A stretch of 64,000 bases of DNA from an uncultured Solirubrobacterales bacterium. Lineage in GTDB: Bacteria > Actinomycetota > Thermoleophilia > Solirubrobacterales > Solirubrobacteraceae. The notes under the pieces were generated by a model. That model saw only the letters and a list, made by a program, of their open reading frames with translations. It searched no databases and was not told where the DNA came from. The stretch spans positions 477,845 through 541,844 of the forward strand of contig CAWEXS010000001.1 of the NCBI GenBank assembly GCA_963813115.1, in the 5' to 3' direction. A program made the position numbers and the translations under genes. Shown here one piece after another: positions 2,043 through 15,996 of this stretch (within the stretch, counting starts at the first letter, position 1; each line of letters begins with the position of its first letter).

Positions 2043-3182
2043 GTGGCCACCAATAATCCCTTCACGCCGACGTTCGGCTCGTCGCCGCCACTGCTCGCTG
2101 GGCGCGAGGAGCTGATCGAGCTGTTCGGCGAGGCACTCGACGACGGGCCCGGTTCGGCGGGGCGCGCGACGCTCTACACGGGAGCGCGCGGCACGGGCAA
2201 GACCGTGCTGCTCAACGCGATCGAGGACACCGCCCGGGCGCGTGGTTGGCTAGTCGTCGCCGAGACCGCGACGCCGGGGTTTCTCACCCGACTCACCGAT
2301 GATCATCTGCCGCGGTTGCTCGCCGAGCACGACCCGGACGCACTGAAGCGGCGCCTCAGGGGCTTCGGGCTGCCGGCGAACCTCGGCTCGCTCGACTGGC
2401 AGACCATCGAACGGCACACGCGCACGCTCTCTTTCCGCTCGAAGGTCGAGCTGCTGACAGACTTGCTCGCGGAGAACGAGACGGGGCTGCTGATCACACT
2501 CGATGAGCTCCACTACCGCCATGCGAACGAGCTGCGCGAGTTCGGGACGGTAGTGCAGCACGCGTTCCGCGAGCGCCGCGAGTTCGCGTTCGTGGGCGCC
2601 GCGTTGCCAGCCGCAATCGACGAGCTGCTCAACGACGAAGTTCTCACGTTCATGCGTCGCGCCGACCGCCACCATGTCGGAGCCGTCGCTGCCGCTGCTG
2701 TCAGGGAAGCGATTGCGCAGCCGATCGCGACGCGCGGGAGGTCGATCGCCGACGACGCCCTCGACGCGATGGTAGTCGCGACCGAGGGGTATCCGTTCTT
2801 CATCCAGCTCGTCGGCGATCAGGTGTGGCGCAAGGCTGGCGCTGCCGATGAGATCACGCTCTTAGCGGCGCAGGAGGGCATCACCGCCGCGCGGCGCCGG
2901 CTCGGTCAGCTCGTGCACGCGCCGGCGCTCGCCGAGGCCTCCGACGTCGACAAGTCGTTTCTTCTTGCGATGACCCAGGATGACGGCGCGTCGCTCCTCG
3001 GCGACATCGCCAAACGACTGAAAGTAGACTCAAACTACGCAGGCCAGTATCGGCTGCGACTGCTCGCGCATGAGCTGATCGCCCCCGCGGGATACGGGCG
3101 GGTCCAGTTCGCGCTCCCCTACCTGCGCGACTACCTGCGAGAGCACGCCGCCGCCCGTGGGCTGCCTGTGCAGCCCGGTTAA
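2043..3182 (+). CDS. AAA+/P-loop ATPase with C-terminal winged-helix domain
   Basis: N-terminal NPF...P..LAGRE, Walker A GARGTGKT, Walker B LLITLDELH, C-terminal HTH-like 'LLGDIAKRLKVDSNYAGQYRLRL'. Confidence 0.85.
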   Translation: MATNNPFTPTFGSSPPLLAGREELIELFGEALDDGPGSAGRATLYTGARGTGKTVLLNAIEDTARARGWLVVAETATPGFLTRLTDDHLPRLLAEHDPDALKRRLRGFGLPANLGSLDWQTIERHTRTLSFRSKVELLTDLLAENETGLLITLDELHYRHANELREFGTVVQHAFRERREFAFVGAALPAAIDELLNDEVLTFMRRADRHHVGAVAAAAVREAIAQPIATRGRSIADDALDAMVVATEGYPFFIQLVGDQVWRKAGAADEITLLAAQEGITAARRRLGQLVHAPALAEASDVDKSFLLAMTQDDGASLLGDIAKRLKVDSNYAGQYRLRLLAHELIAPAGYGRVQFALPYLRDYLREHAAARGLPVQPG

Positions 3183-3296: not shown

Positions 3297-3380
3297 TGCG
3301 GATGAGAGGACTCGAACCTCCACCGGGTTGCCCCGACACGGACCTGAACCGTGCGCGTCTACCAATTCCGCCACATCCGC
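3297..3380 (-). tRNA. tRNA-Leu(CAG)
   Basis: Reverse complement GCGGATGTGGCGGAATTGGTAGACGCGCACGGTT-CAG-GTCCGTG...GGTTCGAGTCCTCTCATCCGCA; long variable arm; CCA not encoded. Confidence 0.95.
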
Positions 3381-3482: not shown

Positions 3483-3555
3483 GCCGCCATCGTCTAGGGG
3501 ACTAGGACGCCGCCCTCTCACGGCGGTAACACGGGTTCGAATCCCGTTGGCGGTA
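3483..3555 (+). tRNA. tRNA-Glu(CTC)
   Basis: GCCGCCATCGTCTAGGGGACTAGGACGCCGCCCT-CTC-ACGGCGGTAACACGGGTTCGAATCCCGTTGGCGGTA; canonical Glu D-arm. Confidence 0.95.
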
Positions 3556-3740
3556 TTTTCTCAGCAGGCCCGGGTCCCGCAGGGGCGCCGGGCCCGCCCG
3601 GCTGCGGGCCGCCGGAGTGCTCGGGAGGCTCTGTTTGGCCTTCCTCCAAGCGGTCTTGGCAACTGTGTGTAGCCCTGTTTATACGGGCACAAAAGCGCGC
3701 GTTTCTGACCCGCGAAAGCGAATTCCGTGACACAACGTTT

Positions 3741-3758
3741 TATGAGTATCAACTCATA
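3741..3758. promoter_or_regulatory. Palindrome, putative operator upstream of the TetR-family gene
   Basis: Perfect TATGAGT-ATCA-ACTCATA in an A/T-richer intergenic region. Confidence 0.5.
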
Positions 3759-4052
3759 GGCGTCACGCGGCCAGTTTCTAATAAGTTAAACCGGCGGTCG
3801 TCGGTTTGTTCGAAATTGGGCCCAAAAGGGCCCGGCGGACGGCCTCGTTTGGGTACCGCAGAAGTCGGCCAATCGGAAGTAGGAGACGGGGCTCGACTTC
3901 CAGGCGTCAACCCATGAACCTCTCTGGTGTCGCTGAACGAGGTTCGCCGCGCAACCTCGCGATGTGATCCCACCGGGCGCCGTGGCCCAGATGGGCTGTT
4001 GGTGGTCGTTTCATCGTCGAACTGTTGAACAAGACTGGTAGGCACGAACAAG

Positions 4053-5048
4053 ATGGCTTCTAAGGATGAGACGCGCTTGAGGACCCTGAGGCTGCGTCCG
4101 GGTCCCAATGGCCTGCCACGTGGGCAGGTAACCGAGATTCAGCGCAGCAGGATGCTCACCGCCACCGTCGAGGCGGTCGAGGATGTCGGCTATGCAGGAC
4201 TGACCGTGGCACAGGTCATCAGTCGCGCCAAGGTGTCGCGCAAGACCTTCTATGACGTGTTCACCGACCGTGAGGACTGCTTCCTGGCGGCCTTCGATCA
4301 GGCGATCGCCCAGGCGAGCAACGCCGTAAGCGAGGGCTACGACGCTGACAGTGGCTGGCGTGAGGGCCTGCGAACCGGGTTGTTCGCGCTGCTCGCCTTC
4401 CTCGACGAGGAGCCCGGCCTGGCGCGGCTGTGCGTGGTCGAGGCGCTCGGCGCCGGGCCCCGCGTGCTGGAGCGGCGTGCCGAAGTCCTGGAAACCCTCA
4501 AGGAGGTCGTCGATCGAGGCCGGGACGAGGGTGGCGCCCGTTCGGCACGCAGCACCAGCGAGGCCCCCAACGTGACGGCCGAAGGGGTCGTCGGCGCCGT
4601 GTTCGCGGTCATCCATACCCGTCTGCTGGGTCGCGGAAACGAACGGCTCACCGACCTGCTCGGTCCCTTGATGAGCATGATCGTGCTGCCATATCTGGGC
4701 GCCCGGGTGGCCAGCAACGAGCTGACCCGCAGGCCCCCCAAGGTCTTCAGGCCCTCCCGCGCGCCACAGCGGATCAGCAAGGATCCCCTGGAGGGGCTGG
4801 AAATGCGCCTCACCTATCGCACCGTGCGGGTGCTGACCGTGATCGGCGATCGCCCCGGGACCAGCAACCGCGAGATCGCCGAAGAGTCCGGAATCTCCGA
4901 TCAGGGGCAGATCTCGAAGCTCCTGACCCGCCTGGAGCGGCTGGACCTGGTTCGAAATACCGGCGAGGGCCAGATTCGAGGCGCATCCAACGCGTGGCAT
5001 CTCACCGACCGTGGCGCGCAGGTCGAGCGGGCGACCCGCCCGCGTTGA
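4053..5048 (+). CDS. TetR/AcrR-family regulator with an additional C-terminal winged HTH
   Basis: N-terminal TetR HTH (GYAGLTVAQVISRAKVSRKTFY); C-terminal MarR-like wHTH (SNREIAEESGISDQGQISKLLTRLE...WHLTDRG). Confidence 0.85.
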   Translation: MASKDETRLRTLRLRPGPNGLPRGQVTEIQRSRMLTATVEAVEDVGYAGLTVAQVISRAKVSRKTFYDVFTDREDCFLAAFDQAIAQASNAVSEGYDADSGWREGLRTGLFALLAFLDEEPGLARLCVVEALGAGPRVLERRAEVLETLKEVVDRGRDEGGARSARSTSEAPNVTAEGVVGAVFAVIHTRLLGRGNERLTDLLGPLMSMIVLPYLGARVASNELTRRPPKVFRPSRAPQRISKDPLEGLEMRLTYRTVRVLTVIGDRPGTSNREIAEESGISDQGQISKLLTRLERLDLVRNTGEGQIRGASNAWHLTDRGAQVERATRPR

Positions 5049-5332
5049 TCCTCGCCCGGTTTTAGCTCCTCGCCCGATGGCAGGCGACGATCGGTCGTCC
5101 GGCCACACGATCTCGGGGTTGCGTTGAGGCCACCCTTAGGCGTTGCGTGGCGCCGGTGACAAAGCAGCCGTTAGACAGCGACATCCGGTAGCCGGCGGCA
5201 AGCATCCGCGCTCGCGCTCGCGCCCTCGCTCCAGGCCCGCGTATCTTTCCGAGCGTTTTGGTGGCCCCCGTCGGAGTTACTCCAGAGGGCCCTCAATCGA
5301 GTGGGCCGTCGGACCGACCAGGAGCCGCCGAG

Positions 5333-6274
5333 ATGACCCGATTCGTACAGTCGCCAGGACACTTTTGCCCACGAACGCTCGCTGTGGGGGTTGCGGGTTC
5401 GAGCGCTCCGCCCGAGCCCGTCGCGGGCGGCGTCGGGGAGGCGATCCTGGCCTGCTATCTGGACTCCGCCGGGCGACGCCGCGAGGTGCTGGCGCGCTCC
5501 GGTTCGGCCGGCAGCCTGCTCGTGCTCGATCGCGACGGCGCCACGCTCGATGATCGTCGCCTCGTCGCCCACCTGCCGCCCGACGAGCCCGCCGGGAATG
5601 CGGCGCTGATATGTCGCCACTACCTCCACGACGCTCCCCGCAGGCGCTGCCGGCACGTCACCGTGGAGGACACCGCGATCGTCCCGTTCGCCGCCGAAGA
5701 GCAGGAGCTTTATGCGGCAGCCCCGCCGGGCAGCGGCGAGTTGCACGACCGTCACGGCTGGACTTACCGTCTGGAGCCCCAGCCCCCCGAGTACCAGTGC
5801 TCGCAACTGCGCTGGTGTCGCAGCAAGCCTCGCGACCCTCTGGAGGCGCCCGTGGCGGTGAGCGTGCGCGAGGTGATCGGGGCGCTCGAAAGCTACCGCG
5901 CGGTGCGAGTGCTGACCGTCGCGGCGCTGGTGCGCCATCGCGGCGCGCGAGACGTCTCGGTCGTGCGCCTGCGCGCCGAGCTGGAGCGGGCCAATGCGAG
6001 CCGCATCCTGCTCAATCGTGGTCTGCGTCGGGCAGTGCTCACGGTTGTGCGTAGCCAGGACGTGAGTCTCAGCGAGATCGCCAGCCGCTGTGGACGGGTG
6101 AAGTACGACGCCCGCGGCAATCCCAGCGGGGAGACCAGCTGGCTCTCACGACGCGTGGGCCTCGCGCCCGAGGGTGGGCGGCACCTGACCACGCCCTGGA
6201 TCCACACCGAGGTGCTGGCCCTGATCGCGCGTCGCGGTCTCGGGCTCACCCCGCGCGAGGTCGAAGTCGACTGA
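5333..6274 (+). CDS. Hypothetical protein with a putative C-terminal XRE-like HTH
   Basis: Long ORF, first gene of the coupling-protein operon; C-terminus 'VSLSEIASRCG...SWLSRRVG...LALIARRGLGLTPREVE'; start could be 5258 or 5333. Confidence 0.7.
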   Translation: MTRFVQSPGHFCPRTLAVGVAGSSAPPEPVAGGVGEAILACYLDSAGRRREVLARSGSAGSLLVLDRDGATLDDRRLVAHLPPDEPAGNAALICRHYLHDAPRRRCRHVTVEDTAIVPFAAEEQELYAAAPPGSGELHDRHGWTYRLEPQPPEYQCSQLRWCRSKPRDPLEAPVAVSVREVIGALESYRAVRVLTVAALVRHRGARDVSVVRLRAELERANASRILLNRGLRRAVLTVVRSQDVSLSEIASRCGRVKYDARGNPSGETSWLSRRVGLAPEGGRHLTTPWIHTEVLALIARRGLGLTPREVEVD

Positions 6275-6289
6275 AGGCGGCCCCGACCG

Positions 6290-7954
6290 ATGTCCTCCCC
6301 CGATGCTCTCCCCGACCTGAGCGGCGGCCCGCTCGCGCCGGCTGTGCGGCTCGCTCACGCGGCGATCGGCGCCTGCGAGCACGTTGCTCTGGGTTGGGTT
6401 CTCGGTGTGCTCCTGGCCCGGCTCATGCGGCGCTCGCCCCTGCACTGGAGCTGGGCGCTGGTGGCGTTGGCCTGCGTGCTCGTGCTGCGAGCGCTGTTCG
6501 CGGGTGCGATCACGACGGTCCCGGCAGTCGCGCTGCTCATCGCCGCCGGGCGAGGTGCGCGCCACCACGGGAGGGATCTGATGGACGGGGCCGATCTCGG
6601 CCGGGCAGCGCGGGCGCGGGTGAGCCCGTTCCAGGCGCTCGGTCGTCGTCTGAGCAGCGCCCAATCTCGCCGGGGCCGCTTCACCCTGGCGGCGAGACTG
6701 CCGTGGCGGCGGATCGGTGCACCGGCGGATGGGTGGTGGCCGGTCGCGGACCGGCTGACCGTGGGCGAGGATGCTCGTGGGCGCCCCGTCGCGATCCCGC
6801 TGGGCGGTATCCACGGGGGTACGCACACGCTGGTCCTCGGCGCCTCTGGATCCGGCAAGACGGTCACCCAGGCCTGGATCGCCGTGCGTGCGATCGAGCA
6901 CGGGATGGGCGCCGTGGTCGTCGATCCCAAGGACGACCGCGACCTGCGCGCCGCGCTGCGAGACACCGCGCGCCGCGTGGGGCGGAGATTCGTCGAGTGG
7001 ACCCCGCAGGGCCCCTGGATCTACAACCCCTACGGTCGCGGTGGCGATACCGAGATCGCCGACAAGCTGCTCGCGGCCGAGCGTTTCACCGAGCCCCACT
7101 ACCTGCGCCAGGCCCAGCGCTATCTCGGCCACGAGGTGCGTGCCCTGCGCGCCGCCGGAGCCCACAGCAGCCTCGCGGCGCTCGTGCGCTACCTGGAGCC
7201 GCGCGAGCTGCGGGTGCTCGCTCGGGAGCTGGAACCGGAGCAGACGCTGCCGCTGAGGGCTTACCTCGACTCGCTCAGCGCCCGCCAGCTCGCCGATCTC
7301 ACCGGGGTGCGCGATCGGCTGGCGATCATCGCCGAGTCGGACATCGGGCGCTGGCTGGAGCCCCAGGCGCACGGTCCGCCGTCGTTCGACCTGCTGGAGA
7401 TCCTGCGCGAAGGGGCCGTGGCGTACTTCAGTCTGGAGTCCGACCGCCGTCCGCTGCTCACCCAGATGCTGGGCAGCGCGATCGTCCAGGACCTTCAGAC
7501 CACGGTCGCCGCCATGCAGGGAGCCCCAGTCGCCTCGCTCGCGGTGATTGACGAGTTCTCCGCCGTCGCGGCCGAGCAGGTGGCCAGGCTCTTCGGGCGT
7601 GCCCGCGCCGCCGGCATGAGCCTGCTGCTGGGCACGCAGGAGCTGTCCGATCTCAGGCTCCCGGGGCGTGAGCTGCTGTTGGAGCAGGTGCTCGGCAACG
7701 TCTCAAGCGTGATCGCTCATCGCCAGGTGGTCCCCGCTTCGGCGGACCTCATCGCGCAGCTGGCCGGAACGGCGGGCTCCTGGAAGACATCCTGGGCCCA
7801 CGACGGCAGATTCACGCGCACTCGCGTGCGCGAGCCGCTGCTGCGCGCCGAGGAGCTTGCGGGACTGGCCCGCGGCCGCGCCGCGGTGATCACGCTCTCG
7901 GAGGGGACGAACGTCAGGCTTGCCCAGATCCACTCGATCTCCGCCCGTGGTTGA
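6290..7954 (+). CDS. Type IV coupling protein (VirD4/TraD/TrwB family)
   Basis: N-terminal TM helices, Walker A GASGSGKT, 'VVVDPK', Walker B LAVIDEF, 'ARAAGMSLLLGTQ', 'LGNVSSVIAHR'. Confidence 0.9.
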   Translation: MSSPDALPDLSGGPLAPAVRLAHAAIGACEHVALGWVLGVLLARLMRRSPLHWSWALVALACVLVLRALFAGAITTVPAVALLIAAGRGARHHGRDLMDGADLGRAARARVSPFQALGRRLSSAQSRRGRFTLAARLPWRRIGAPADGWWPVADRLTVGEDARGRPVAIPLGGIHGGTHTLVLGASGSGKTVTQAWIAVRAIEHGMGAVVVDPKDDRDLRAALRDTARRVGRRFVEWTPQGPWIYNPYGRGGDTEIADKLLAAERFTEPHYLRQAQRYLGHEVRALRAAGAHSSLAALVRYLEPRELRVLARELEPEQTLPLRAYLDSLSARQLADLTGVRDRLAIIAESDIGRWLEPQAHGPPSFDLLEILREGAVAYFSLESDRRPLLTQMLGSAIVQDLQTTVAAMQGAPVASLAVIDEFSAVAAEQVARLFGRARAAGMSLLLGTQELSDLRLPGRELLLEQVLGNVSSVIAHRQVVPASADLIAQLAGTAGSWKTSWAHDGRFTRTRVREPLLRAEELAGLARGRAAVITLSEGTNVRLAQIHSISARG

Positions 7955-8675
7955 GCGCGTGCAGCCCAGTGCCGCTCGCATCGCGCTGCTGGAGTGGGTG
8001 GCCCGCCTCGGCGTGGTCACCGCCGAGGCGCTCGCCACACGGCGGGGAGTGGAGCTGGGCACGGCAACGAGTCAGCTCGCCGCCGCCGAGCACGCCGGGC
8101 TGCTCCTCCGCCGTCGAGTTCTGACGGGGAGACCCGCGCTGTACACGCCCACCAGCGCCGGGATGCGGGCCGTCGCCGAGCCCGCCTCGGCCCCCTGCCG
8201 GGTCAATCCCGCCAACGCCCGGCACCTGATCGCCTGCGCGGCCGTGGCTGCGATGCTTGAACGTCTCTATCCCGAGCATCGGGTGCAGGGCGAGCGCCGG
8301 CTCCGCAGAGACGAGCGCGTCGCCGGCCGCCAACTCGCCAGCACACGCCTGCCTCGTCCGGGGCGAGTTGAGGCGTCGCATCATCCGGACCTCGCCGTCT
8401 GGCCCCCGCCTGCCACCGGCCTCGGGCCGGTCGCGGTCGAGGTCGAGCTGACCGTCAAGGGGGCGCCTCACCTGACCGAGATCTGCGAGGCCTGGGCGGC
8501 GAGCCGCTGCGTGGCGGGCGTCCTCTACGTCGTGGCCCCCGAAGTCGAGCGTCCCCTGACCCGAGCGATCGGGGCGGTGGCCGGGCAGCGGCGCATCGCG
8601 GTGGTAAGGCTCGACGCGTTCATCGCCCACTCGACGGGACGAAGGATTCAGCGAACCGTCTCAAGCGCGCCCTAA
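7947..8675 (+). CDS. Replication-relaxation (MOB_C-like) relaxase: wHTH + PD-(D/E)XK domain
   Basis: N-terminal wHTH; PD-x16-EVELTVK-x3-H fits the MOB_C signature D-x6-17-E-x-E-[RL]-x2-K; overlaps the T4CP stop. Confidence 0.8.
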   Translation: MVERVQPSAARIALLEWVARLGVVTAEALATRRGVELGTATSQLAAAEHAGLLLRRRVLTGRPALYTPTSAGMRAVAEPASAPCRVNPANARHLIACAAVAAMLERLYPEHRVQGERRLRRDERVAGRQLASTRLPRPGRVEASHHPDLAVWPPPATGLGPVAVEVELTVKGAPHLTEICEAWAASRCVAGVLYVVAPEVERPLTRAIGAVAGQRRIAVVRLDAFIAHSTGRRIQRTVSSAP

Positions 8676-8736
8676 ATTCGTGAGATGGGGATCGAACACG
8701 ATGGGGATCAAACACGGCAGGCAAAGGAGCAAATCG

Positions 8737-9285
8737 ATGTCCTTCTCCAACATCAACCGCGTGGTGCTCGTGGGTCGTCTCACGCGCGATCCGGAGCTGA
8801 GGGCGCTGCCCTCCGGTCAGAGCGTTTGCGGGTTGCGGGTGGTCTGCAACGGCACGCGCCGCGACGCCGACGGCACCTATCAGGGGCGACCGAACTACTT
8901 CGACGTGAGCGTTTTCGGCGCCCAGGCCGAGAACGTCAGCCGCTACACCCGACGGGGCAGCCTGCTCGCCATCGACGGGCGGCTGGAGTGGCGCGAGTGG
9001 GAAACCGCCGAGCAGCAGCGTCGCCAGACGGTGAGCATCGTGGCCGACAGCATCCAGTTCCTGGAAAGCGCCCACGCAACCGATCGCGGTGGGGAGGATG
9101 ACAGCGGCGGCGCAAGTGGCGGTGTGACTGGTAGCGCGGGCGACGGCGACGGCGACGGCAAAGGCGACAGGGACGGGGATCGCGACGGGGATCGCGGTGG
9201 CGACGGGGACGGCGGTGGTGCGGAGGACGACGGGGAGCCCGCCCCGGCCTCCGGGGCTCGTGCTGAGCAGGCGCTCGTCTTCTGA
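8737..9285 (+). CDS. ssb: Single-stranded DNA-binding protein (probably a second copy)
   Basis: 'NINRVVLVGRLTRDPELR' OB fold; AAGGAG RBS before ATG8737; Gly/Asp-rich tail. Confidence 0.92.
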   Translation: MSFSNINRVVLVGRLTRDPELRALPSGQSVCGLRVVCNGTRRDADGTYQGRPNYFDVSVFGAQAENVSRYTRRGSLLAIDGRLEWREWETAEQQRRQTVSIVADSIQFLESAHATDRGGEDDSGGASGGVTGSAGDGDGDGKGDRDGDRDGDRGGDGDGGGAEDDGEPAPASGARAEQALVF

Positions 9286-9394
9286 GATCCCGGCGATAGA
9301 GAACGCGGGGGCGGCAGCGCGCCGGGGTGGATCGCGCCGGGCCGCGCCGGGCTGAAGGGCTCGCGCGCGTTGCAAGGCGTAGACTGCCGCCTCC

Positions 9395-9434
9395 GAGTCA
9401 CCAGCATCGAATCACCCGCATTGAGTCACCAGCA
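9395..9434 (+). repeat. Three 14-bp-period direct repeats ahead of the MaoC operon
   Basis: GAGTCACCAGCA (9395), GAATCACCCGCA (9409), GAGTCACCAGCA (9423). Confidence 0.8.
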
Positions 9435-9468
9435 CTTTGTCCCGTGCGCACGCAAGGAGACCCAACCG

Positions 9469-9912
9469 TTGCCAGTCAATACGCAAGCGATCGGTAAGAA
9501 CTACGAGCCCACGCTCTACGCGGTGGGCCGTGAGAAGATCAAGGAGTACGCCCGCGCCGTGGGCGAGAGCAACCCGCGTGCACCTCGACGTCGAGGCGGC
9601 CCGTGCGGCCGGCTACGCCGATGTCGTTGCGCCGCCGATGTTCGCCGTCGTCTACTGCGCCCCCTCGGTCGGGCCGCCCGATCTTCGACCCCGAGATCGA
9701 GCTGAACTTCGCGATGATGGTCCACGGCGGCCAGGAGTTCGAGTGGGGTCCCGTGGTCGTCGCCGGCGACGAGATCACCACGACTGCCAGCGTCAAGGAC
9801 ATCTCCGAAGCGCGACGGCCGCGGCTACTACGTCTTCGAGTCAGTCTCCACCAATCAGCGCGGCGAGCAGGTCTGTCGCGGGACGTGGACCAACATCGTG
9901 CGAGGAGTGTGA
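9469..9912 (+). CDS. MaoC-like dehydratase subunit (HadA/FAS1-like), split by about 3 frameshifts
   Basis: Fragments in successive frames: 'VGREKIKEYARAVGESNP', 'VHLDVEAARAAGYADVVAPPMF', 'MMVHGGQEFEW', 'TWTNIVRGV*'. Confidence 0.75.
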
Positions 9913-9917
9913 GCACC

Positions 9918-10312
9918 ATGGCCGACCTTCAGGCGGGAACCCGATTCCCGAGGTGCGCGATCACGCCCGACAAGTATCCTCACGGTCCGCTACGCCGGGG
10001 CCTCCGGGGACTACAACCCGATCCACATCGACGAGGAGTTCGCTCGCGCGGTAGGGCTGCCCGGACGCATCCTGCACGGTCTCTGGAGCATGGCCCAGGT
10101 GGCGCGCGCGCAGACCGAGGCCGCCGGTGGGCCCGAGCACCTCAAGCGACTCGCCGTGCAGTTCCGCGGCATGGGCTGTGCCCGAGCAGGAGGTGCGTCG
10201 TCACCGGCACCGTCCGCGAGCGTCGCCGAGGGACACGCGATCGATCGACACCGTGGCCGAGCAGGACGGCAAGCAGATCATCCGCAACGCCGAGGCCGAG
10301 CTGACGATCTAG
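9918..10312 (+). CDS. MaoC-family dehydratase (HadB-like), multiply frameshifted
   Basis: 'YAGASGDYNPIHIDEEFARAVGLPGRILHGLWSM' hydratase motif; pieces lie in several frames. Confidence 0.75.
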
Positions 10313-10432
10313 CTTTTGCCGGCGATCTAGCCGCAGTTCCCGTAGTTCCCAGGAGGGTTCGTCCGCGGGCGGGCCCCGCGCAGGTGCGGCGGGTGGCTGT
10401 TTGCCCGCCCACCCTGCCCTACAATCAGATCC

Positions 10433-11460
10433 ATGCTGACACCGCCGCCAGGAGCTGATCCTGTGGAACGTCGTCGACGGCTACCTGCGCAGCGGTCAGC
10501 CCGTGGCCTCCAAGGTGATCGCCGCCGACCCCGAGCTTGACTGCGCGGCCTCCACCGTTCGCAACGAGTTGGCGCTGCTGGAGGAGTACGGGCTGCTGGC
10601 CCACCCCCACACCTCCGCCGGGCGGGTGCCCACCGACGCCGGGCACCGCTACGTGGTCGATCGCATGCTCTGCACCGGTCAGGGGCTCGTCGCCGCGCCC
10701 CGACCCCAGCTGTCGCTGACCCGTCGCGAAGTGGAGGACGCGATGCGGTCGACCACCGAGACCCTCTCGCAGGTCACCAACCTGCTGGCCGTCGTCTCCG
10801 CGCCCTCGCTCAACACCGCCACCATCCGCCACCTCGAGGTGCTCGTCGCTCCAGCCGCAGGTGGTGATGGTCGTGATCATCACCTCGACCGGAGGCGTCT
10901 CCAAGATGCTGGCCACCTTCGAGGGGCCCGTCGACCCCGGCCTGGTGACCTGGGCCGGGGAGTTCTCAACGAGCGCCTACAGGGTCTCGGGCTGGGCACC
11001 CGCATGCTCCAACAGCGACTCTCGAGCCCACGCTCTCGGGCACCGAGCGGGCGTTCCTCGATCGACTTGCACCCGCCTTCAGCCAGCTGGCTCCTGGGAG
11101 TCGGAGGACACCATTTACGTCGAGGGCGCCGCGCGTCTGCTCTCGGAGGTTCCGCTCGCCGACGTCACCCAGATCAACGAGCTTTGGAGTCTGCTCGAGC
11201 GGCGCGTGGTACTGCTCGGCGTACTGCGCTCAGCGCTCGGCGAGCCCGGCGTATACGTACGCATCGGCCAGGAGAACGAGATCCCCGCAATGCGCTCGAT
11301 GGCGCTCGTCGCGGCGAGCTATGGTGTGGCCCAGCGCAAGCTCGGCGCCGTCTCGGTCATCGGTCCGGTGAGCATGAACTACGCGCACGCCATCCCGATG
11401 GTCCGCGACATCGCCCACGAGCTGTCGCGGTTCCTTGAAGACGCCTACGCCGAGAGCTGA
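10433..11460 (+). CDS. hrcA: Heat-inducible transcription repressor HrcA (frameshifted in this sequence)
   Basis: '[32 protein letters not shown]', '[14 protein letters not shown]'; immediately upstream of dnaJ. Confidence 0.88.
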
Positions 11461-11471
11461 ACACCAACCCC

Positions 11472-12597
11472 ATGCCGCGTGATCCCTACGAGGTGCTCGG
11501 CGTCGAGCGCGACGCCAACGAGCAGCAGGTAAAGAAGGCCTTTCGCGGCCTGGCGCGCGAACTGCACCCCGATGTCAACGCGCACGACCCCCAGGCCGAG
11601 GAGAAGTTCAAGGAGGCCGCCGAGGCCTACGAGATCCTCTCAGACCCCGAGCGCCGCGCCACCTATGACCGCTACGGCCACGACGGCTTGCGCTCCGGCG
11701 GGCAGGCCCCCAACTTCGACGGCTTCGGGTCGATCAGCGATCTCTTCGAGACCTTCTTCGGCGGGCAGGCCGGTTTCGGGGGCAGGGGCGGTGGGCCCGC
11801 GGCCGGAGGTGACGTGGCGGTCGCCGTCGAGATCGACCTGGTGGAGGCCGCGCGGGGCAAGCAGGTCAACGTCGCCTTCGAGGCCGTCGAGCGCTGCGAG
11901 CACTGTCATGGCAACGGCGCCGAGCCCGGCACCCCGATCGAGACCTGCAAACGCTGTGGCGGGGCGGGGCAGCTGCAGGCCATGACCCGCACGCCCTTCG
12001 GTCAGATGGTCCGCACGATCGCCTGCGATGTCTGTCACGGCGACGGGCGCATACCCAAGCAGCCCTGTCGCGACTGTCGCGGGCGCGGTCGGCGGTCGGC
12101 CCGCGCTCGAGGTCGAGGTCGACGTGCCCTCCGGCATCTCAGACGGCCAGCGCATCCGGGTCGGCGGGCGCGGCCACGCCGGTGAAGCCGGTGCTCCGGC
12201 GGGCGACCTGTATGTGCACGTCAGCGTGCGCGCCGACGAGCGCTTCGTGCGTCAGGGCGACGATCTGATCACCGCGCTGGACGTGCCCGCGCCGCTGGCG
12301 GCGATCGGCAGCACCCAGGAGGTGCCGACGCTGGAGGGCACCTCCGCTGTCGAGATTCCCGCCGGGACACAGCCGGGCGACGTGCTCACCCTGCGCGGCC
12401 AGGGCATGCCCGGCTTGCGACGCGGCGCCCAGGGTGACCTGCGGGTGGTCGTCAACGTGCTGATTCCCCGGCGGCTCAGCGCCGAGCAGCGGGAGCTGCT
12501 GGAGCGCTTCAACGAGACCCTCACCGCGGAGAACCTGAGCACCGAGGAATCGATGTTCGCCAAGCTCCGCCGCGCCCTGCGTAGCCAGGCCGCGTGA
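11472..12597 (+). CDS. dnaJ: Chaperone DnaJ (one frameshift near 12100)
   Basis: J domain with HPD, CxxCxGxG zinc repeats, C-terminal domain in the second frame. Confidence 0.92.
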
Positions 12598-13463
12598 TCC
12601 GCCTCGCGCTGCGCGTCCGCCGCGAGGATGCCGAGCTGGTGCTCTCCGAGCTGCTCGAACTGGCTCCCGCCGGGGTGGAGGAGACCGAGCTGGACGGCCG
12701 GGTGGTCGAGTACGCGGTCTACGGGGCGCCCGGCGAGCTGCCCGAGCTACCCGACCTGCGCGCCGCCGCCGGGCGGAGCCCTGGTCGAGATCTCTACCAG
12801 CGAGATCCCCGACGACTGGTCGGAGCGCTGGAAGGCCTTTCACCGCCCGGTGCTGCTCGAGGCCGTCCCGGGCGCGCCGGATGTGGCGCTGCACGTACGT
12901 CCGCCTTGGGAGGGGCCCAGCGAGCGCCCCGGCGTGCAGGAGATCGTGATCGACCCCGGTCAGGCGTTCGGCACCGGCGCCCACGCGACCACCCGTCTCT
13001 GCCTGGAGCTGCTGCTGGAGTTGGCCGCGGCGCTCCCCGAGCGTGGCCCACTGCTCGACATAGGGACCGGCTCCGGGGTGTTGGCGATCGCCGGGTCGCG
13101 TCTGCGCTTCGCGCCCGTGCTCGGCCTCGATCACGAGCGCGAGAGCGTGCAGGCCACCCGCGAGAACGCCGCGGTCAACGCTGTCAATTTGGAGGCGCGA
13201 CACTGGGATCTGCGCAGCGAGGAGCTGCCCTGGATCGGGAGGGGGAGCCCCATCCGACCGTCGTCGTCGCCAACCTGCTGCGCCCCCTGCTGCTGGAGTT
13301 GGCCGCCGGCATGACCCTGGCGCCACCGCACCTGCTGGCCAGCGGACTGCTCGTGGCCGAGGTCGACGAGGTGGTGAGCGCCTTCGCGGAGCATCTGGGG
13401 CTGCGCGAGCGCGAACGGCGCACAAGCGGCGAGTGGGCGGCCGTCTGGCTTACCAGGGTCTAG
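12594..13463 (+). CDS. prmA: Ribosomal protein L11 methyltransferase (frameshifted)
   Basis: 'DWSERWKAFHRP', 'IDPGQAFGTGAHATT', 'LLDIGTGSGVLAI'; dnaJ-prmA synteny. Confidence 0.85.
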   Translation: MIRLALRVRREDAELVLSELLELAPAGVEETELDGRVVEYAVYGAPGELPELPDLRAAAGRSPGRDLYQRDPRRLVGALEGLSPPGAARGRPGRAGCGAARTSALGGAQRAPRRAGDRDRPRSGVRHRRPRDHPSLPGAAAGVGRGAPRAWPTARHRDRLRGVGDRRVASALRARARPRSRARERAGHPRERRGQRCQFGGATLGSAQRGAALDREGEPHPTVVVANLLRPLLLELAAGMTLAPPHLLASGLLVAEVDEVVSAFAEHLGLRERERRTSGEWAAVWLTRV

Positions 13464-13474
13464 CGCCAGACCCT

Positions 13475-13542
13475 CCTAGCCGGGTATCCCGCTCTGCTGA
13501 CCCTAGGCCGGGTCCTCCGCTCTGCTGACCCTAGGCCGGGTC
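13475..13542. repeat. About 2.5 tandem copies of a 27-28 bp unit at the prmA/amidohydrolase convergence
   Basis: CCTAG(G)CCGGGT...CCGCTCTGCTGAC repeated. Confidence 0.85.
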
Positions 13543-14678
13543 GGGTCGCTCGGTGGCGGCCTTGATGACCGAGCGGTAGAGCAGGTCGATCGCCCGGGGA
13601 CCCCACGAGCATCGGGGACGCGCAGCAGCTCGCGGGAGCCGCCAAGCGCGCTCCCCATCACCTCCAGGGCCTCGCCCACGTCGCCCGGCTCGGGGTCTCG
13701 GCAGGCCGCCATCGCCATTTCGAGCATCGCGACCGCCGCGTCCATGACGCCCCCGAAGAGCGCCGGGCCGGTCAGGCTGCCATAGCCGTACACCCGCGCC
13801 AGGCGCCCGGAGAGCGTGATCGAACGTCTCCCTCTAGGCGGCTTGGGGGCCGGTAGCCCGCGCCCGTCGATCAGTCCCGCCATCGTCTCGCCCAACAGAC
13901 CCCTGACGGCTGTCTCATCCAATCCCACGTAGGCGGCGGCGCGCAGCGCCATGTAGAGGCTGCTGGACGGGAACCCGTACGGCGGGTCCGAGGCGAACAC
14001 GATGCGCTCGGCCGGGACCCGCGCGAACAGCTCCAGCACGTCGATCGGGAAGAAGCAGGAGATGTCGTAGAGCACGCCGGGATGGTCTGCCAGACGCGAG
14101 GTCAGGATCCCCTGGTCGCAGATCGCCCCGTGGGCCAGGATCAGCACCACCTCGGGGTGGCGCAGGGCGAGGTTCGCCAGACCGTCGGCGATCGGCGGCA
14201 TGCCGCGTCCCGCGTGGATCAGGATCGGCACGTCGGCTTCGCCCGCCAGCGAGAAGATCGAGTCCATCTCGGGGCCGTCGAAGGAGAACGCCTGGGCGCG
14301 GGGATGCAGCTTGATGCCCCTGGCTCCCGCCGCGAGCGCTCGCTCGCCCTCCGCGCGCGCGTCTTCGGCGGGGTCCAGCCGGCAGAACGGGATCAGTCGA
14401 CCGTCGCTTTCGGCGGCCCAGCCGAGCACACGGTCGTTGGGCACCCGGTAGGCGGGGTGGCGCTCGGGGTCGTGCAGCGGGAACACGCAGGCCCGGCGCG
14501 CACCGGCGCCGTCGAGCTGCTCCAGCAATGCCGGCAGGCTGAGCGAGCGCCCATCCTCGTCCAGCCCCAGGTGCGTGTGAGCGTCGAAGACTTCCGCATC
14601 CGCCGGGCGCAGGGTCTGCACCTCAGCCTCGAAGGGCGCAAGCGCGGTGGCATAGATCGACTGAGGGGAGCGGTCCAT
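13503..14678 (-). CDS. Amidohydrolase-2 family metal-dependent hydrolase
   Basis: 'FDAHTHLG', 'GARGIKLHP', 'ILIHAG', 'ILAHG', 'IVFASDPPYG'; the natural C-terminus may be in another frame ending at 13531. Confidence 0.85.
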   Translation of the reverse strand: MDRSPQSIYATALAPFEAEVQTLRPADAEVFDAHTHLGLDEDGRSLSLPALLEQLDGAGARRACVFPLHDPERHPAYRVPNDRVLGWAAESDGRLIPFCRLDPAEDARAEGERALAAGARGIKLHPRAQAFSFDGPEMDSIFSLAGEADVPILIHAGRGMPPIADGLANLALRHPEVVLILAHGAICDQGILTSRLADHPGVLYDISCFFPIDVLELFARVPAERIVFASDPPYGFPSSSLYMALRAAAYVGLDETAVRGLLGETMAGLIDGRGLPAPKPPRGRRSITLSGRLARVYGYGSLTGPALFGGVMDAAVAMLEMAMAACRDPEPGDVGEALEVMGSALGGSRELLRVPDARGVPGRSTCSTARSSRPPPSDPTRPRVSRAEDPA

Positions 14679-14703: not shown

Positions 14704-15996
14704 ATGGCTTGGCACGTTGTGATCGCCGGTGGCGGCTTCGGTGGCTTTTACGCCGCCCGCACCCTCGAAAAGGTGCTGCCCCCGCACAGCACGCGGGTGA
14801 CGCTGATCAACGAGGCCAACTTCATGCTCTACACACCGCTGTTGCCGGGGGCCGCTGGGGCCACGCTTGACCCGCGCCATGTGATCGTCCCGCTGCGCTC
14901 CCAGCTGCGGCGCACCGACCTCGTGATCGGGCGGGTCACTGCCGCCGACCCCGCCGCGCGCACGCTCGCGGTTCGTCGGATCGACGGCGAGCACCTCAAG
15001 CTCGACTACGACCAGCTGATCGTCGCGTTGGGCTCGGTCTCGCGGACCCTGCCGATTCCCGGCCTGGCCGAGCACGCGATCGGCTTCAAGTCGCTCTCGG
15101 ACGCCACCGCGCTGCGCAACCAGGTGCTGAGCGCCCTGGACATCGCGGAGTCGCTGGAGGACCCCGAGCAGCGCGCCGAGTACCTCGGCTTTGTGTTCGT
15201 GGGAGCCGGCTACGCGGGTCTGGAGGGGCTCGCCGAGCTTCAGGACTTCGCGGCCCAGGTGATCGACCTCTACCCCCGCTGTCGTGCCGACGGGATGCGC
15301 TGGGTGCTCGTGGAGGCGCGCGAGCGAATCATGCAGGAGATGTCGCCCAGCCTCTCCGAGTTCGCCGCGCGCGAGCTGCGTGGGCGCGGCATCGAGGTCA
15401 TGACGAGCACCACCATCGAGGAGATCACCGATCGCAGCGCCACGCTCTCCACGGGCGAGGCGATCAGGGCCCGCACCGTGGTCTGGACCGCCGGGGTGAA
15501 GCCCAGCCCGGCGGTGGCGCGCCTGGGATTGCCCCTGGAGGGCGGCGGTCGGCTGGCGGTGGACCGCATGCTGCGCGTCGAGGGCCACCCCGGAGTCTGG
15601 GCGCTGGGTGACTGTGCCGCGGTGCCCGACCCCGCCAGACGCGGACAGCCGTGCCCTCCGACCGCCCAGCACGCCATCCGTCAGGGTCGGCTGGTGGCCC
15701 GCAACGTGGCCGCCACGCTCGGCAGCGGCAAGCTGCGCCCGTTTCGCTACCGCACCGCCGGGGTGGTCGCCGAGTTGGGTCACAACGAGGCCGTAGCGAT
15801 CACGCTGGGCATCCGCTGGCGGGGACTGCCGGCATGGTTCATCGCCCGCACCTACCACCTGCTGCTGATGCCCGGTCTGGGCCGCAAGTTGCGACTGTTG
15901 ATCGACTGGAACGTCGCGCTGCTGTTCGGACGCGACGCCTCCGCGCCGGGGCGTCTGGGCAGCCCGACGCCACTTGAGCACGGCGAGGAGAGCTGA
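14704..15996 (+). CDS. Type II NADH dehydrogenase-like NAD(P)/FAD oxidoreductase
   Basis: GGGFGG, 'FVFVGAGYAGLE', 'WALGDCA', 'PPTAQHA'. Confidence 0.9.
   Translation: MAWHVVIAGGGFGGFYAARTLEKVLPPHSTRVTLINEANFMLYTPLLPGAAGATLDPRHVIVPLRSQLRRTDLVIGRVTAADPAARTLAVRRIDGEHLKLDYDQLIVALGSVSRTLPIPGLAEHAIGFKSLSDATALRNQVLSALDIAESLEDPEQRAEYLGFVFVGAGYAGLEGLAELQDFAAQVIDLYPRCRADGMRWVLVEARERIMQEMSPSLSEFAARELRGRGIEVMTSTTIEEITDRSATLSTGEAIRARTVVWTAGVKPSPAVARLGLPLEGGGRLAVDRMLRVEGHPGVWALGDCAAVPDPARRGQPCPPTAQHAIRQGRLVARNVAATLGSGKLRPFRYRTAGVVAELGHNEAVAITLGIRWRGLPAWFIARTYHLLLMPGLGRKLRLLIDWNVALLFGRDASAPGRLGSPTPLEHGEES

Follow-up and report, generated by a model that had tools for sequence, protein, structure and literature searches.

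Conjugation genes are normally selfish and mobile, and cases in which they have become fixed in the chromosomes of a whole lineage are few. In the gonococcal genetic island (GGI) of Neisseria gonorrhoeae, chromosomal single-stranded DNA (ssDNA) is secreted by a relaxase, a type IV coupling protein (T4CP), and a type IV secretion system (T4SS). The GGI has been treated elsewhere (PMC6736028), and T4SS-type integrative and conjugative elements (ICEs) have been described from actinobacteria (PMC3429521). Relaxases of the MOB_C class have a PD-(D/E)XK restriction-endonuclease fold and an N-terminal helix-turn-helix (HTH), and their own TraD/VirD4-type coupling protein is encoded next to them (PMC12857230, PMC3424549). 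MobB/MobC of CloDF13 and TraX of pAD1 follow this plan. In Bacillus phage 0305phi8-36, one operon encodes a MobC-like relaxase (orf200) and a coupling ATPase (orf201), and this phage family of winged-HTH (wHTH) nucleases had earlier been linked to CloDF13 MobC (PMC3357382). Among the relaxases found with the T4SSs of Patescibacteria, MOBC was the commonest class, and the relaxase genes there are often close to t4cp but distant from virB4 (PMC12102498). Here, we analyze a stretch of 64,000 nucleotides (“the window”) from the chromosome of an uncultured Solirubrobacterales bacterium and describe a cassette of four genes, encoding a T4CP, a predicted MOB_C-like nuclease, a single-stranded-DNA-binding protein (SSB), and an apparently lineage-specific protein.

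The window corresponds to C1:477845-541844 of genome G000, which comprises 3.16 Mb on 4 contigs at 68% GC. In the labels used below, G numbers denote genomes and L numbers denote loci or contigs, while g1 is the genus of the window, g17 its sister genus, and f4 another family. The cassette occupies window positions 5333 to 9285 and consists of tightly spaced plus-strand genes in the order ORF2, T4CP gene, ORF4, and SSB gene (Table 1), with the coordinates and order given in an original prediction that had been made from the sequence alone. The T4CP gene starts 15 nt past ORF2, and ORF4 overlaps the T4CP stop by 8 nt. ORF2, the T4CP gene, and ORF4 each occur once in the G000 genome. Our preferred reading, in which we have moderate confidence, is that an ancient conjugation system of the ICE type (monoderm, VirB4/AAA_10-class) was captured by the chromosome and has been inherited vertically under purifying selection, and that the cassette represents its half for DNA processing and coupling.

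Table 1. Features of the cassette, its surroundings, and the unlinked secretion-like cluster (window coordinates unless a contig is named)
Feature	Position	Strand	Basis
ORF2, 313 aa, lead gene of the operon	5333-6274	+	Conserved start ATG at 5333, conserved ribosome-binding site
T4CP, TraD/VirD4/TraG-like, 554 aa	6290-7954	+	Pfam TraG-D_C, Walker A/B, membrane anchor
ORF4, 242 aa, predicted wHTH plus PD-(D/E)XK nuclease	7947-8675	+	Motifs, AF2 fold, remote homology
SSB, second copy of the genome	8737-9285	+	PF00436, TIGR00621
T4SS-like cluster, VirB2/VirB4/VirB6/SLT-like	G000:C2:1644296-1652277 (L035:4296-12280)	co-oriented	
Operon leader, intergenic	5049-5332	+	Upstream regions of 16 loci aligned
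TetR_N plus C-terminal MarR-type wHTH fusion regulator	4053-5048	+	Pfam TetR_N 5.5e-10, MarR_2 1.8e-5
MaoC-type dehydratases, hrcA, dnaJ, prmA	9469-13454	+	Pfam annotation of syntenic loci
tRNA-Leu(CAG)	3297-3380	-	ARAGORN
tRNA-Glu(CTC)	3483-3555	+	ARAGORN

The second gene encodes a coupling protein, as had been proposed. Its product scored 27.6 bits against PF12696 TraG-D_C (cut-off, 22), and the orthologue at L015 additionally reached PF10412 TrwB_AAD_bind (35.5; cut-off, 20.5) and PF02534 (28.6; cut-off, 20.1). The NCBIfam TraD models were all matched below their equivalog or subfamily cut-offs, TIGR03743 SXT_TraD at 2.5e-25, and the best match among PDB sequences was DotL/IcmO. Hydrophobic stretches at residues 24 to 43 and 51 to 87 (Kyte-Doolittle windows of at least 1.6) form an N-terminal membrane anchor, and the P-loop ATPase carries a Walker A motif (GASGSGKT) at residue 184 and a Walker B motif (LAVIDE) at residue 417. 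No other T4CP homologue was found in G000, and the best plasmid match was the VirD4/TraG gene of Carboxydocella pCCELLA01 (35% identity, 2e-43). The identity of the SSB is equally plain, with 105.8 bits against PF00436 (cut-off, 26) and 117.8 bits against TIGR00621 (cut-off, 53.95). It is 49% identical to the housekeeping paralogue encoded in rpsF-ssb-rpsR (G000:C2:521659-522087), and its acidic tail ends in a hydrophobic tip (..ALVF; ..SIVF or ..DLVF in relatives).

ORF4 had been described as a relaxase with the motif PD-x16-EVELTVK-x3-H. The motif is present, in the form HPD-x16-EVELTVK-x3-H (PD at nt 8385-8390, EVELTVK at nt 8439-8459), together with HLIACA..LE from nt 8223. Across 28 homologues, residues H93, E105, D148, E165, E167, and K171 are invariant, and the trailing x3-H of the motif is not conserved. 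The AF2 model (pLDDT 90) shows a wHTH, with helices at residues 9 to 49 and a hairpin at 53 to 68, followed by an alpha-beta-beta-beta-alpha-beta core, the topology of PD-(D/E)XK nucleases, whose first alpha helix spans residues 88 to 107. Foldseek matched the wHTH to MarR-family proteins with an rmsd of 1.6 to 2.7 over about 70 residues (Pfam MarR, 0.016), and the top PDB fold match of the model was 1xmx (VC1899; E = 8.3e-4), which we take to carry a restriction-endonuclease-like domain. Full-length matches were found to phage proteins such as Gp146 of Bacillus phage G (TM 0.66, E = 8.6e-9). In this respect ORF4 resembles the MobC-like wHTH nuclease of phage 0305phi8-36, which is likewise paired with a conjugation-type ATPase outside plasmids; the phage system differs in its context, in an ATPase that is AAA_10-like rather than TraG-D_C/TrwB-like, and in lacking an SSB and host-level fixation.

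A second link to MobC comes from the Carboxydocella thermautotrophica plasmid. In hhalign, the ORF4 profile aligned with the 205-aa product of CTH_10018 on pCCELLA01 (probability 97.5, E = 7.7e-12), which shares the same motifs and whose gene lies directly upstream of, and overlaps, the plasmid's T4CP gene, CTH_10017. The plasmid is mobilizable and typed as MOBC by MOB-suite; CTH_10018, which matches PF13814 weakly (0.0047), may or may not be the gene behind that typing. Both genes are thus homologous to those of the cassette, although on this Firmicute plasmid the nuclease gene comes first and neither an SSB gene nor ORF2 is present. The pairing of ORF4 with the T4CP gene is retained in g1, g14, g17, and f4 genomes as well as on pCCELLA01. 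The fold, the conserved active-site residues, and the remote link to MobC mark ORF4 as a candidate for a distant MOB_C/MobC-like relaxase, and the proposed analogy with MOB_C systems, in which a PD-(D/E)XK relaxase-like protein is accompanied by its own coupling protein, is sound as far as remote homology goes. All database relatives of ORF4, more than 640 in number, are labelled hypothetical. A profile search of PDB sequences gave nothing useful, a tblastn search of plasmids with an ORF4 orthologue gave no match, and the contig collection has no record of the ORF4 product from the window itself. Divergent pairs of ORF4-like and T4CP genes (32 to 40% identity, nuclease gene first) were also observed at L024 (G005:C1:2774501-2794500), L049 to L051, and L056 (g14), in other chromosomal contexts away from the MaoC site, and a two-gene module of this kind appears to circulate independently in the family.

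The original prediction had found no mating-pair system and suggested that the cassette borrows the channel of a helper. Its first part is true within the window, but the genome-wide search revealed VirB4-like clusters on another contig. PF03135 (VirB4/CagE), a model that misses the monoderm type, had no match in 41 genomes, and the VirB4-like genes were found with PF12846 (AAA_10). On contig C2, a co-oriented cluster encodes a 305-aa protein, a 126-aa TrbC/VirB2-like protein (1.6e-4), a 200-aa protein, an 808-aa VirB4-like ATPase (AAA_10, 155 bits), an 845-aa protein, and a 369-aa soluble lytic transglycosylase (SLT). A search of PDB sequences with the VirB4-like protein gave nothing useful. 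The cluster is flanked by a BrkB-family gene and a pyridine-nucleotide-disulphide oxidoreductase gene; it is syntenic, with the same flanks, in nine other genomes of the genus, where VirB4 is 65 to 76% identical, and a weaker version occurs in another family. Two further clusters with lower GC3 were observed at G000:C2:1-14000 (L033) and C2:422001-442000 (L034). They contain a VirB4-like gene split into two ORFs and genes for an 814-aa protein, a CHAP hydrolase, N6/N4 and C5 DNA methylases, a subtilase, and Ig-like surface proteins, and they look like more recent conjugative elements; tblastn with the window T4CP found no T4CP homologue in either.

Homologues of both halves stand side by side in G054, a genome of family f4. 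There, a 13-kb co-oriented block contains, in order, ArdC, the 305-aa gene, the 200-aa gene, VirB4, a VirB6-like gene, SLT, SSB, a sigma factor, an ORF4-like gene, and the T4CP gene, followed directly by a tyrosine integrase gene (PF00589, 2e-36), a C5-methylase gene, and an EcoRV-like gene. The SSB gene thus lies between the SLT gene and the ORF4/T4CP pair. Identities to the G000 proteins are 43% for the T4CP, 43% for the ORF4-like protein, 42% for the SSB, and 41% for the VirB4-like protein, and G124 has a similar arrangement. By its gene content, the G054 block appears to be an ordinary T4SS-type ICE of the MPF_FATA class. The apparently complete element spans L053 and L060 (G054:C2:309601-342000), also carries genes for an ECF sigma factor and an Ig-like protein, and is a useful reference for the ancestral arrangement. 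The genus of the window shares its T4CP, ORF4-like, SSB, VirB4-like, VirB6-like, and SLT genes but differs in having them at two distant loci without an integrase, in the added ORF2, regulator, and fusion protein described below, and in following host phylogeny. Because G000 carries a resident channel cluster and the G054 ICE joins both halves with an integrase, the cassette reads as one half of an ICE-derived system, and the unlinked C2 cluster is its likely channel half. A borrowed channel is therefore unneeded: a VirB2/VirB4/VirB6/SLT-like cluster is fixed in the genome, and its homologues are contiguous with those of the cassette genes in G054. Among 121 genomes of the order, the T4CP occurred in 9 of 48 genera and the C2-type VirB4 also in 9 of 48, in partly overlapping sets; the two are contiguous in G054 and G124 and unlinked in G000, and their order-wide co-occurrence is imperfect.

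A resident T4SS could also serve protein export, with the T4CP feeding an effector or contact-killing system and the nuclease and SSB being leftovers or translocated effectors. Fixed T4SSs in other phyla are often repurposed for non-conjugative roles, and those of Patescibacteria mostly lack a relaxase (PMC12102498). In the genomes studied here, however, the nuclease and SSB stay with the T4CP in nearly all carriers, the catalytic residues are conserved, and neither cluster showed genes resembling those for effectors or immunity proteins. We consider protein secretion quite improbable.

The cassette sits between the TetR-type regulator gene and the MaoC/hrcA-dnaJ genes, a position confirmed by annotation, and the synteny survey bore out a fixed site. 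Of 24 genomes of the genus, 23 had an ORF4 homologue, which was 45 to 56% identical in about 20 of them; among the 16 genomes of other genera sampled first, almost none had one. The cassette occupies the same chromosomal site in about 20 of the 24 genomes and also in the sister genus. Maps of 20-kb loci showed the order ORF2, T4CP, ORF4, SSB, and MaoC at one site, and MaoC, hrcA, dnaJ, and prmA form a conserved chromosomal anchor beside the cassette in relatives; of the 16 mapped loci, 14 had the MaoC/hrcA/dnaJ synteny, as did genus g17. The relatives of the cassette genes all came from metagenome-assembled genomes (MAGs) of uncultured Solirubrobacteraceae or Solirubrobacterales. A tree of T4CP and ORF4 shared its well-supported clades with a tree of three flanking housekeeping genes, and pairwise distances in cassette and flanks were correlated (Mantel r = 0.85, p = 2e-4), with divergence about 1.6 times higher in the cassette. 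A wider T4CP tree showed the genus's MaoC-linked copies as monophyletic (SH-aLRT 99), with the window sister to the metagenomic contig L062 and the ICE-borne copies of G054 and G124 branching just outside the g1/g17 clade. Patchy presence is confined to the level of the order; within the genus, the site is fixed and the tree congruent.

These data bear directly on whether the cassette is a recent integrative mobilizable element inserted at tRNA-Glu or tRNA-Leu. The regulator gene is preceded, at a distance of about 500 bp, by the two tRNA genes, which are possible old integration targets, and the spacer at 3501-4000 is AT-richer (GC 0.62). The 3' end of each tRNA gene, however, occurs only once in the window, with up to 3 mismatches allowed, and no direct repeats that could serve as attachment (att) sites were found in 1 to 30 kb of the window. 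With the G054 integrase as a tblastn query, no tyrosine-recombinase homologue was detected in the window (serine and DDE recombinases were not searched specifically), and the nearest matches on C1, at C1:358574 and C1:588368, lie outside it. Composition is host-like, as had been claimed: the cassette has a GC content of 0.70 to 0.75 against 0.68 for the genome and a GC3 of 0.81 to 0.87, like its neighbors. With the same site occupied in two genera and a phylogeny congruent with the flanks, a recent insertion is highly improbable and already contradicted. Because of the fixed MaoC/hrcA/dnaJ site, the congruent tree, the lack of an integrase or att repeats, and the conserved catalytic residues, the data support the original view of a domesticated cassette rather than a recent mobile element.

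Gene pairs of an ATPase and a nuclease are a common logic of defense systems. The cassette might accordingly be a defense or exclusion module, in which a membrane ATPase and a PD-(D/E)XK nuclease act against incoming phage or plasmid DNA. The T4CP matches the PADLOC model mad8 (mads_8) at 1.1e-16, the cassette proteins evolve fast, and a STAND-type ATPase is encoded nearby at 2043-3182. Neither ORF4 nor ORF2 has a PADLOC match, though, and a fixed site with vertical descent is unlike patchy defense islands. The closest homologues lie beside VirB4 and an integrase in a T4SS ICE and on a MOBC-typed plasmid, and an SSB as partner suggests that the system generates its own ssDNA substrate. We regard a defense role as improbable.

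In most relatives, the locus is larger than in the window. An OmpR-type response regulator gene lies between ORF2 and the T4CP gene, and a protein of 1250 to 1360 aa, which we call BIG, is encoded between the TetR/MarR gene and ORF2 (L015:1331-5302, which is identical to L059:1675-5646; also in L014, L016, L019, L020, L025, L027, and L057). BIG has an N-terminal hydrophobic region, a weakly TraD-like P-loop ATPase (TIGR03743, 4.5e-6), and a bona fide C-terminal Replic_Relax domain (PF13814, 44.7 bits, covering the whole profile). To our knowledge, a membrane ATPase and a MOB_C-type domain have not been described in one protein before. A recent duplication of the T4CP gene was ruled out as the origin of BIG because the two proteins share no BLASTP similarity. 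The segment from ORF2 to SSB was seen inverted in place between the BIG and MaoC genes in L014 (G014:C1:335201-355200) and L023 (G024:C3), and no inverted repeats bounding this inversion were found.

ORF2, the lead gene, appears to be specific to the lineage. An independent gene call returned the identical 313-aa product, which had no Pfam, NCBIfam, PHROG, or PADLOC match and belongs to a family of more than 1000 proteins, every one of them hypothetical and from a Solirubrobacterales MAG. Weak matches of orthologues to HTH_20 (0.028) and MarR_2 (0.0058) give a slight hint of a C-terminal HTH. The AF2 model (pLDDT 73) had no Foldseek match below E = 0.2, and a profile search of PDB sequences gave nothing useful. 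Upstream of ORF2, relatives commonly share a TTCGCGCCAACTT box, a palindrome, a CTTGACGG-N17-CCTACAAG promoter, and a ribosome-binding site with the ATG. The palindrome, CCGAGA(C/T)CCC-TTAA-GGG(G/A)TCTCGG, is perfect over 24 to 27 bp, its arms co-vary symmetrically, and it lies just upstream of the conserved -35/-10 pair that precedes ORF2; one form is CCGAGACCCCTTAAGGGGTCTCGG. It occurs once in each of about 13 cassette loci (for example, L016:5878-5902, L017:14236-14259, and L025:14306-14329) and is a candidate origin of transfer (oriT) or operator. A fuzzy search found one palindrome per cassette in relatives and none in the window. Since it was not found upstream of the mating-pair formation (Mpf) cluster and nothing convincing turned up anywhere in the G000 genome, nothing indicates a shared regulon. 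At 3500-9600 of the window, the search for a sigma-70-like site was negative, and a scan for promoters and terminators was uninformative.

Several observations weigh against a captured ICE half under purifying selection. ORF4 had no match to PF13814 even at E = 10 and none to NCBIfam models, including NF041423; within its family, 22 of the 28 homologues matched NF041423 MobC_subf at E of 0.1 or less (best, 8.7e-6), far under the 200-bit cut-off, and hhalign with the Replic_Relax domain of BIG gave E = 1.2e-3 at a probability of 20%, over the N-terminal half only. We label ORF4 MOB_C-like by remote homology and not a member by curated thresholds because these models failed to match, yet the motifs, the fold, the sub-threshold MobC similarity, and the pCCELLA01 homologue agree; the relaxase call of the original prediction stands at that level only. 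The two halves are also found apart, with the T4CP present without a C2-type VirB4 in G092 and g14 genomes and the C2-type VirB4 present without a T4CP in G025, G036, G044, G083, and G111. In the 16-locus alignment, the window leader has no counterpart of the TTCGCGCCAACTT box, of the palindrome, or of the CTTGACGG-N17-CCTACAAG promoter. In L063 (GCA_037025325.1, contig JBAIHS010002425.1), the T4CP gene is cut to a 79-aa ORF at 4661-4900, and BIG is broken in L017, L021, and L023 and the T4CP gene in L023. The sample consists of MAGs throughout, and G000 has frameshifts in core genes. A search for expression data found no RNA run, and one soil DNA run held 6% of the sequence words.

Erosion and constraint can both be read from the closest relatives. 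L062 and L063, the two closest found, share the reduced form with the window, whose genome lacks BIG and the OmpR-type regulator along with the leader elements: L062 has TetR/MarR, ORF2, T4CP, ORF4, and SSB genes without BIG or the regulator, and L063 keeps ORF2, ORF4, and SSB. The window leader keeps the conserved ribosome-binding site (CCAGGAG) and an ATGAC start, and the four cassette genes are single frames and still look intact. In NG86 comparisons of the window with L062, dN/dS was 0.22 for SSB, 0.28 for T4CP, 0.31 for ORF2, and 0.50 for ORF4, against 0.08 for DnaJ, 0.18 for PrmA, and 0.32 for HrcA; with dS at 0.5 to 1.3, near saturation, these values are only rough, and that of ORF4 lies well above that of DnaJ, a further point against our preferred reading. 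The cassette genes are constrained, more loosely than core genes. All four have dN/dS below 1, and long-read MAG errors may contribute to the breakage in L017, L021, and L023. From the reduced form of L062 and L063 and the broken genes elsewhere, we conclude that the system is dispensable and eroding in some sublineages, including that of the window, where the copy is a reduced derivative and may be on its way to loss.

Taken further, the same losses would make the cassette a functionless fossil, a decaying remnant of an ICE or integrative mobilizable element without an integrase, whose open frames persist since stops are rare in DNA of 70% GC. Long spurious antisense ORFs do occur here (for example, 6146-7372), a close relative has lost the T4CP, the window has no promoter, palindrome, regulator, or fusion protein, and the cassette proteins diverge faster than the flanks, with dN/dS values up to that of ORF4. 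A fossil is nevertheless hard to reconcile with full-length, alignable orthologues in species that are up to 37% different in their flanking housekeeping proteins, with the dS to L062 given above, with invariant catalytic and Walker residues, and with dN/dS below 1 throughout. Relatives also keep a non-coding promoter and a symmetrically co-varying palindrome, and the unlinked Mpf cluster is conserved like housekeeping genes. We judge the fossil explanation unlikely. All four alternatives, namely protein secretion, recent insertion, defense, and decay, are less likely in our judgment than an ICE-derived module, and on sequence grounds our verdict is a domesticated DNA-transfer module of ICE origin that appears to be eroding in this lineage.

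In the simplest history, an ICE would have entered the ancestor of the window's genus and its sister genus, lost its integrase, and split into two loci; the split system would then have gained ORF2, the regulator, and BIG and been retained by vertical inheritance. By analogy with what MOB_C relaxases, T4CPs, and element-encoded SSBs are known to do (PMC12857230), the ORF4 nuclease would bind a cis site through its wHTH and nick one strand, the SSB would coat the displaced strand, and a membrane-anchored T4CP hexamer would pass the nucleoprotein to the VirB4-type T4SS channel. Chromosomal DNA or a co-resident element would thereby be exported or passed from cell to cell, so that mobilization of chromosomal DNA or ssDNA export is what we infer as the function. 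Because the window's trimmed copy has no cis site of its own, it would act at most in trans or be inactive, and it might be transcribed by read-through from the regulator gene.

A bolder proposal, which we put forward tentatively and think rather unlikely as a whole, concerns the full system of the relatives. It would be a host-domesticated, regulated apparatus for chromosomal DNA export or exchange, a conjugation-derived counterpart of gene transfer agents, made up of TetR/MarR, BIG, ORF2, the OmpR-type regulator, the T4CP, the MobC-like nuclease, and the SSB behind the palindrome and promoter, with an unlinked, fixed VirB2/B4/B6/SLT channel. Such a system would have two MOB_C-type nucleases and would be selected by its hosts in an abundant uncultured soil lineage, with stepwise loss in some sublineages, including that of the window.

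The surroundings of the cassette showed several features of their own. The TetR/MarR regulator is the upstream neighbor also in L014, L015, L019, L026, L057, L062, and L063, and it is 90% identical to the L062 copy with a dN/dS of 0.09. About 17 full-length paralogues (48 to 56% identity) are scattered over G000, at C1:12170, C1:154164, many sites in C2:210093-1915660, C3:25377, and C4:72097; this is an unusually large expansion for a single regulator architecture, and none adjoins the Mpf or ICE-like clusters. At window positions 9469 to 14663, maoC, hrcA, dnaJ, prmA, and an amidohydrolase gene are each frameshifted at least once relative to their relatives, with about 7 shifts in 5 kb, next to single-frame regions that comprise the cassette with the regulator (4053-9285) and the next gene (14704-15990). 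These frameshifts probably reflect consensus errors of a long-read MAG that cluster in conserved regions, although they may instead be real pseudogenization. Upstream of the tRNA pair, a stretch of slightly lower GC (0.64 to 0.68) holds the gene for the STAND-type ATPase (AAA_16, 1.3e-11) and a 367-aa minus-strand ORF at 345-1448 without a family match.

Compared with CloDF13 and pAD1, the locus has the same core of an HTH plus PD-(D/E)XK protein beside its own coupling protein. It differs in that ORF4 falls below the PF13814 and NF041423 thresholds, in being chromosomal, fixed, and vertically inherited rather than plasmid borne, in the addition of SSB, ORF2, and, in relatives, the ATPase-Replic_Relax fusion and response regulator, and in channel genes that reside in the host. 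The T4SSs of Patescibacteria are likewise lineage-wide, chromosomal, and of conjugative ancestry, but most of their clusters have no relaxase. The GGI, with its MOB_H relaxase, is a horizontally acquired island, whereas the genus of the window keeps a DNA transfer and replication (Dtr) half with a MOB_C-like nuclease genus-wide. What is new relative to these systems is that a MOB_C-like Dtr half and an unlinked Mpf half are each fixed in one lineage and passed on vertically, together with additions specific to that lineage.

Throughout its history, a genus of uncultured Solirubrobacteraceae from soil appears to have kept both halves of an ICE-type system, and fixed transfer genes of this kind bear on how bacteria may domesticate machinery for exchanging genes or for releasing or taking up DNA. 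The nuclease at the center of the system resembles MOB_C, the least-studied relaxase class, and the undescribed ATPase-Replic_Relax fusion is among its proteins. Two large families annotated as hypothetical, the ORF4-like proteins (more than 640) and the ORF2-like proteins (more than 1000), also gain a context. If active, the system would offer a tractable entry to the MOB_C mechanism and to chromosomal gene flow in a dominant uncultured soil group.

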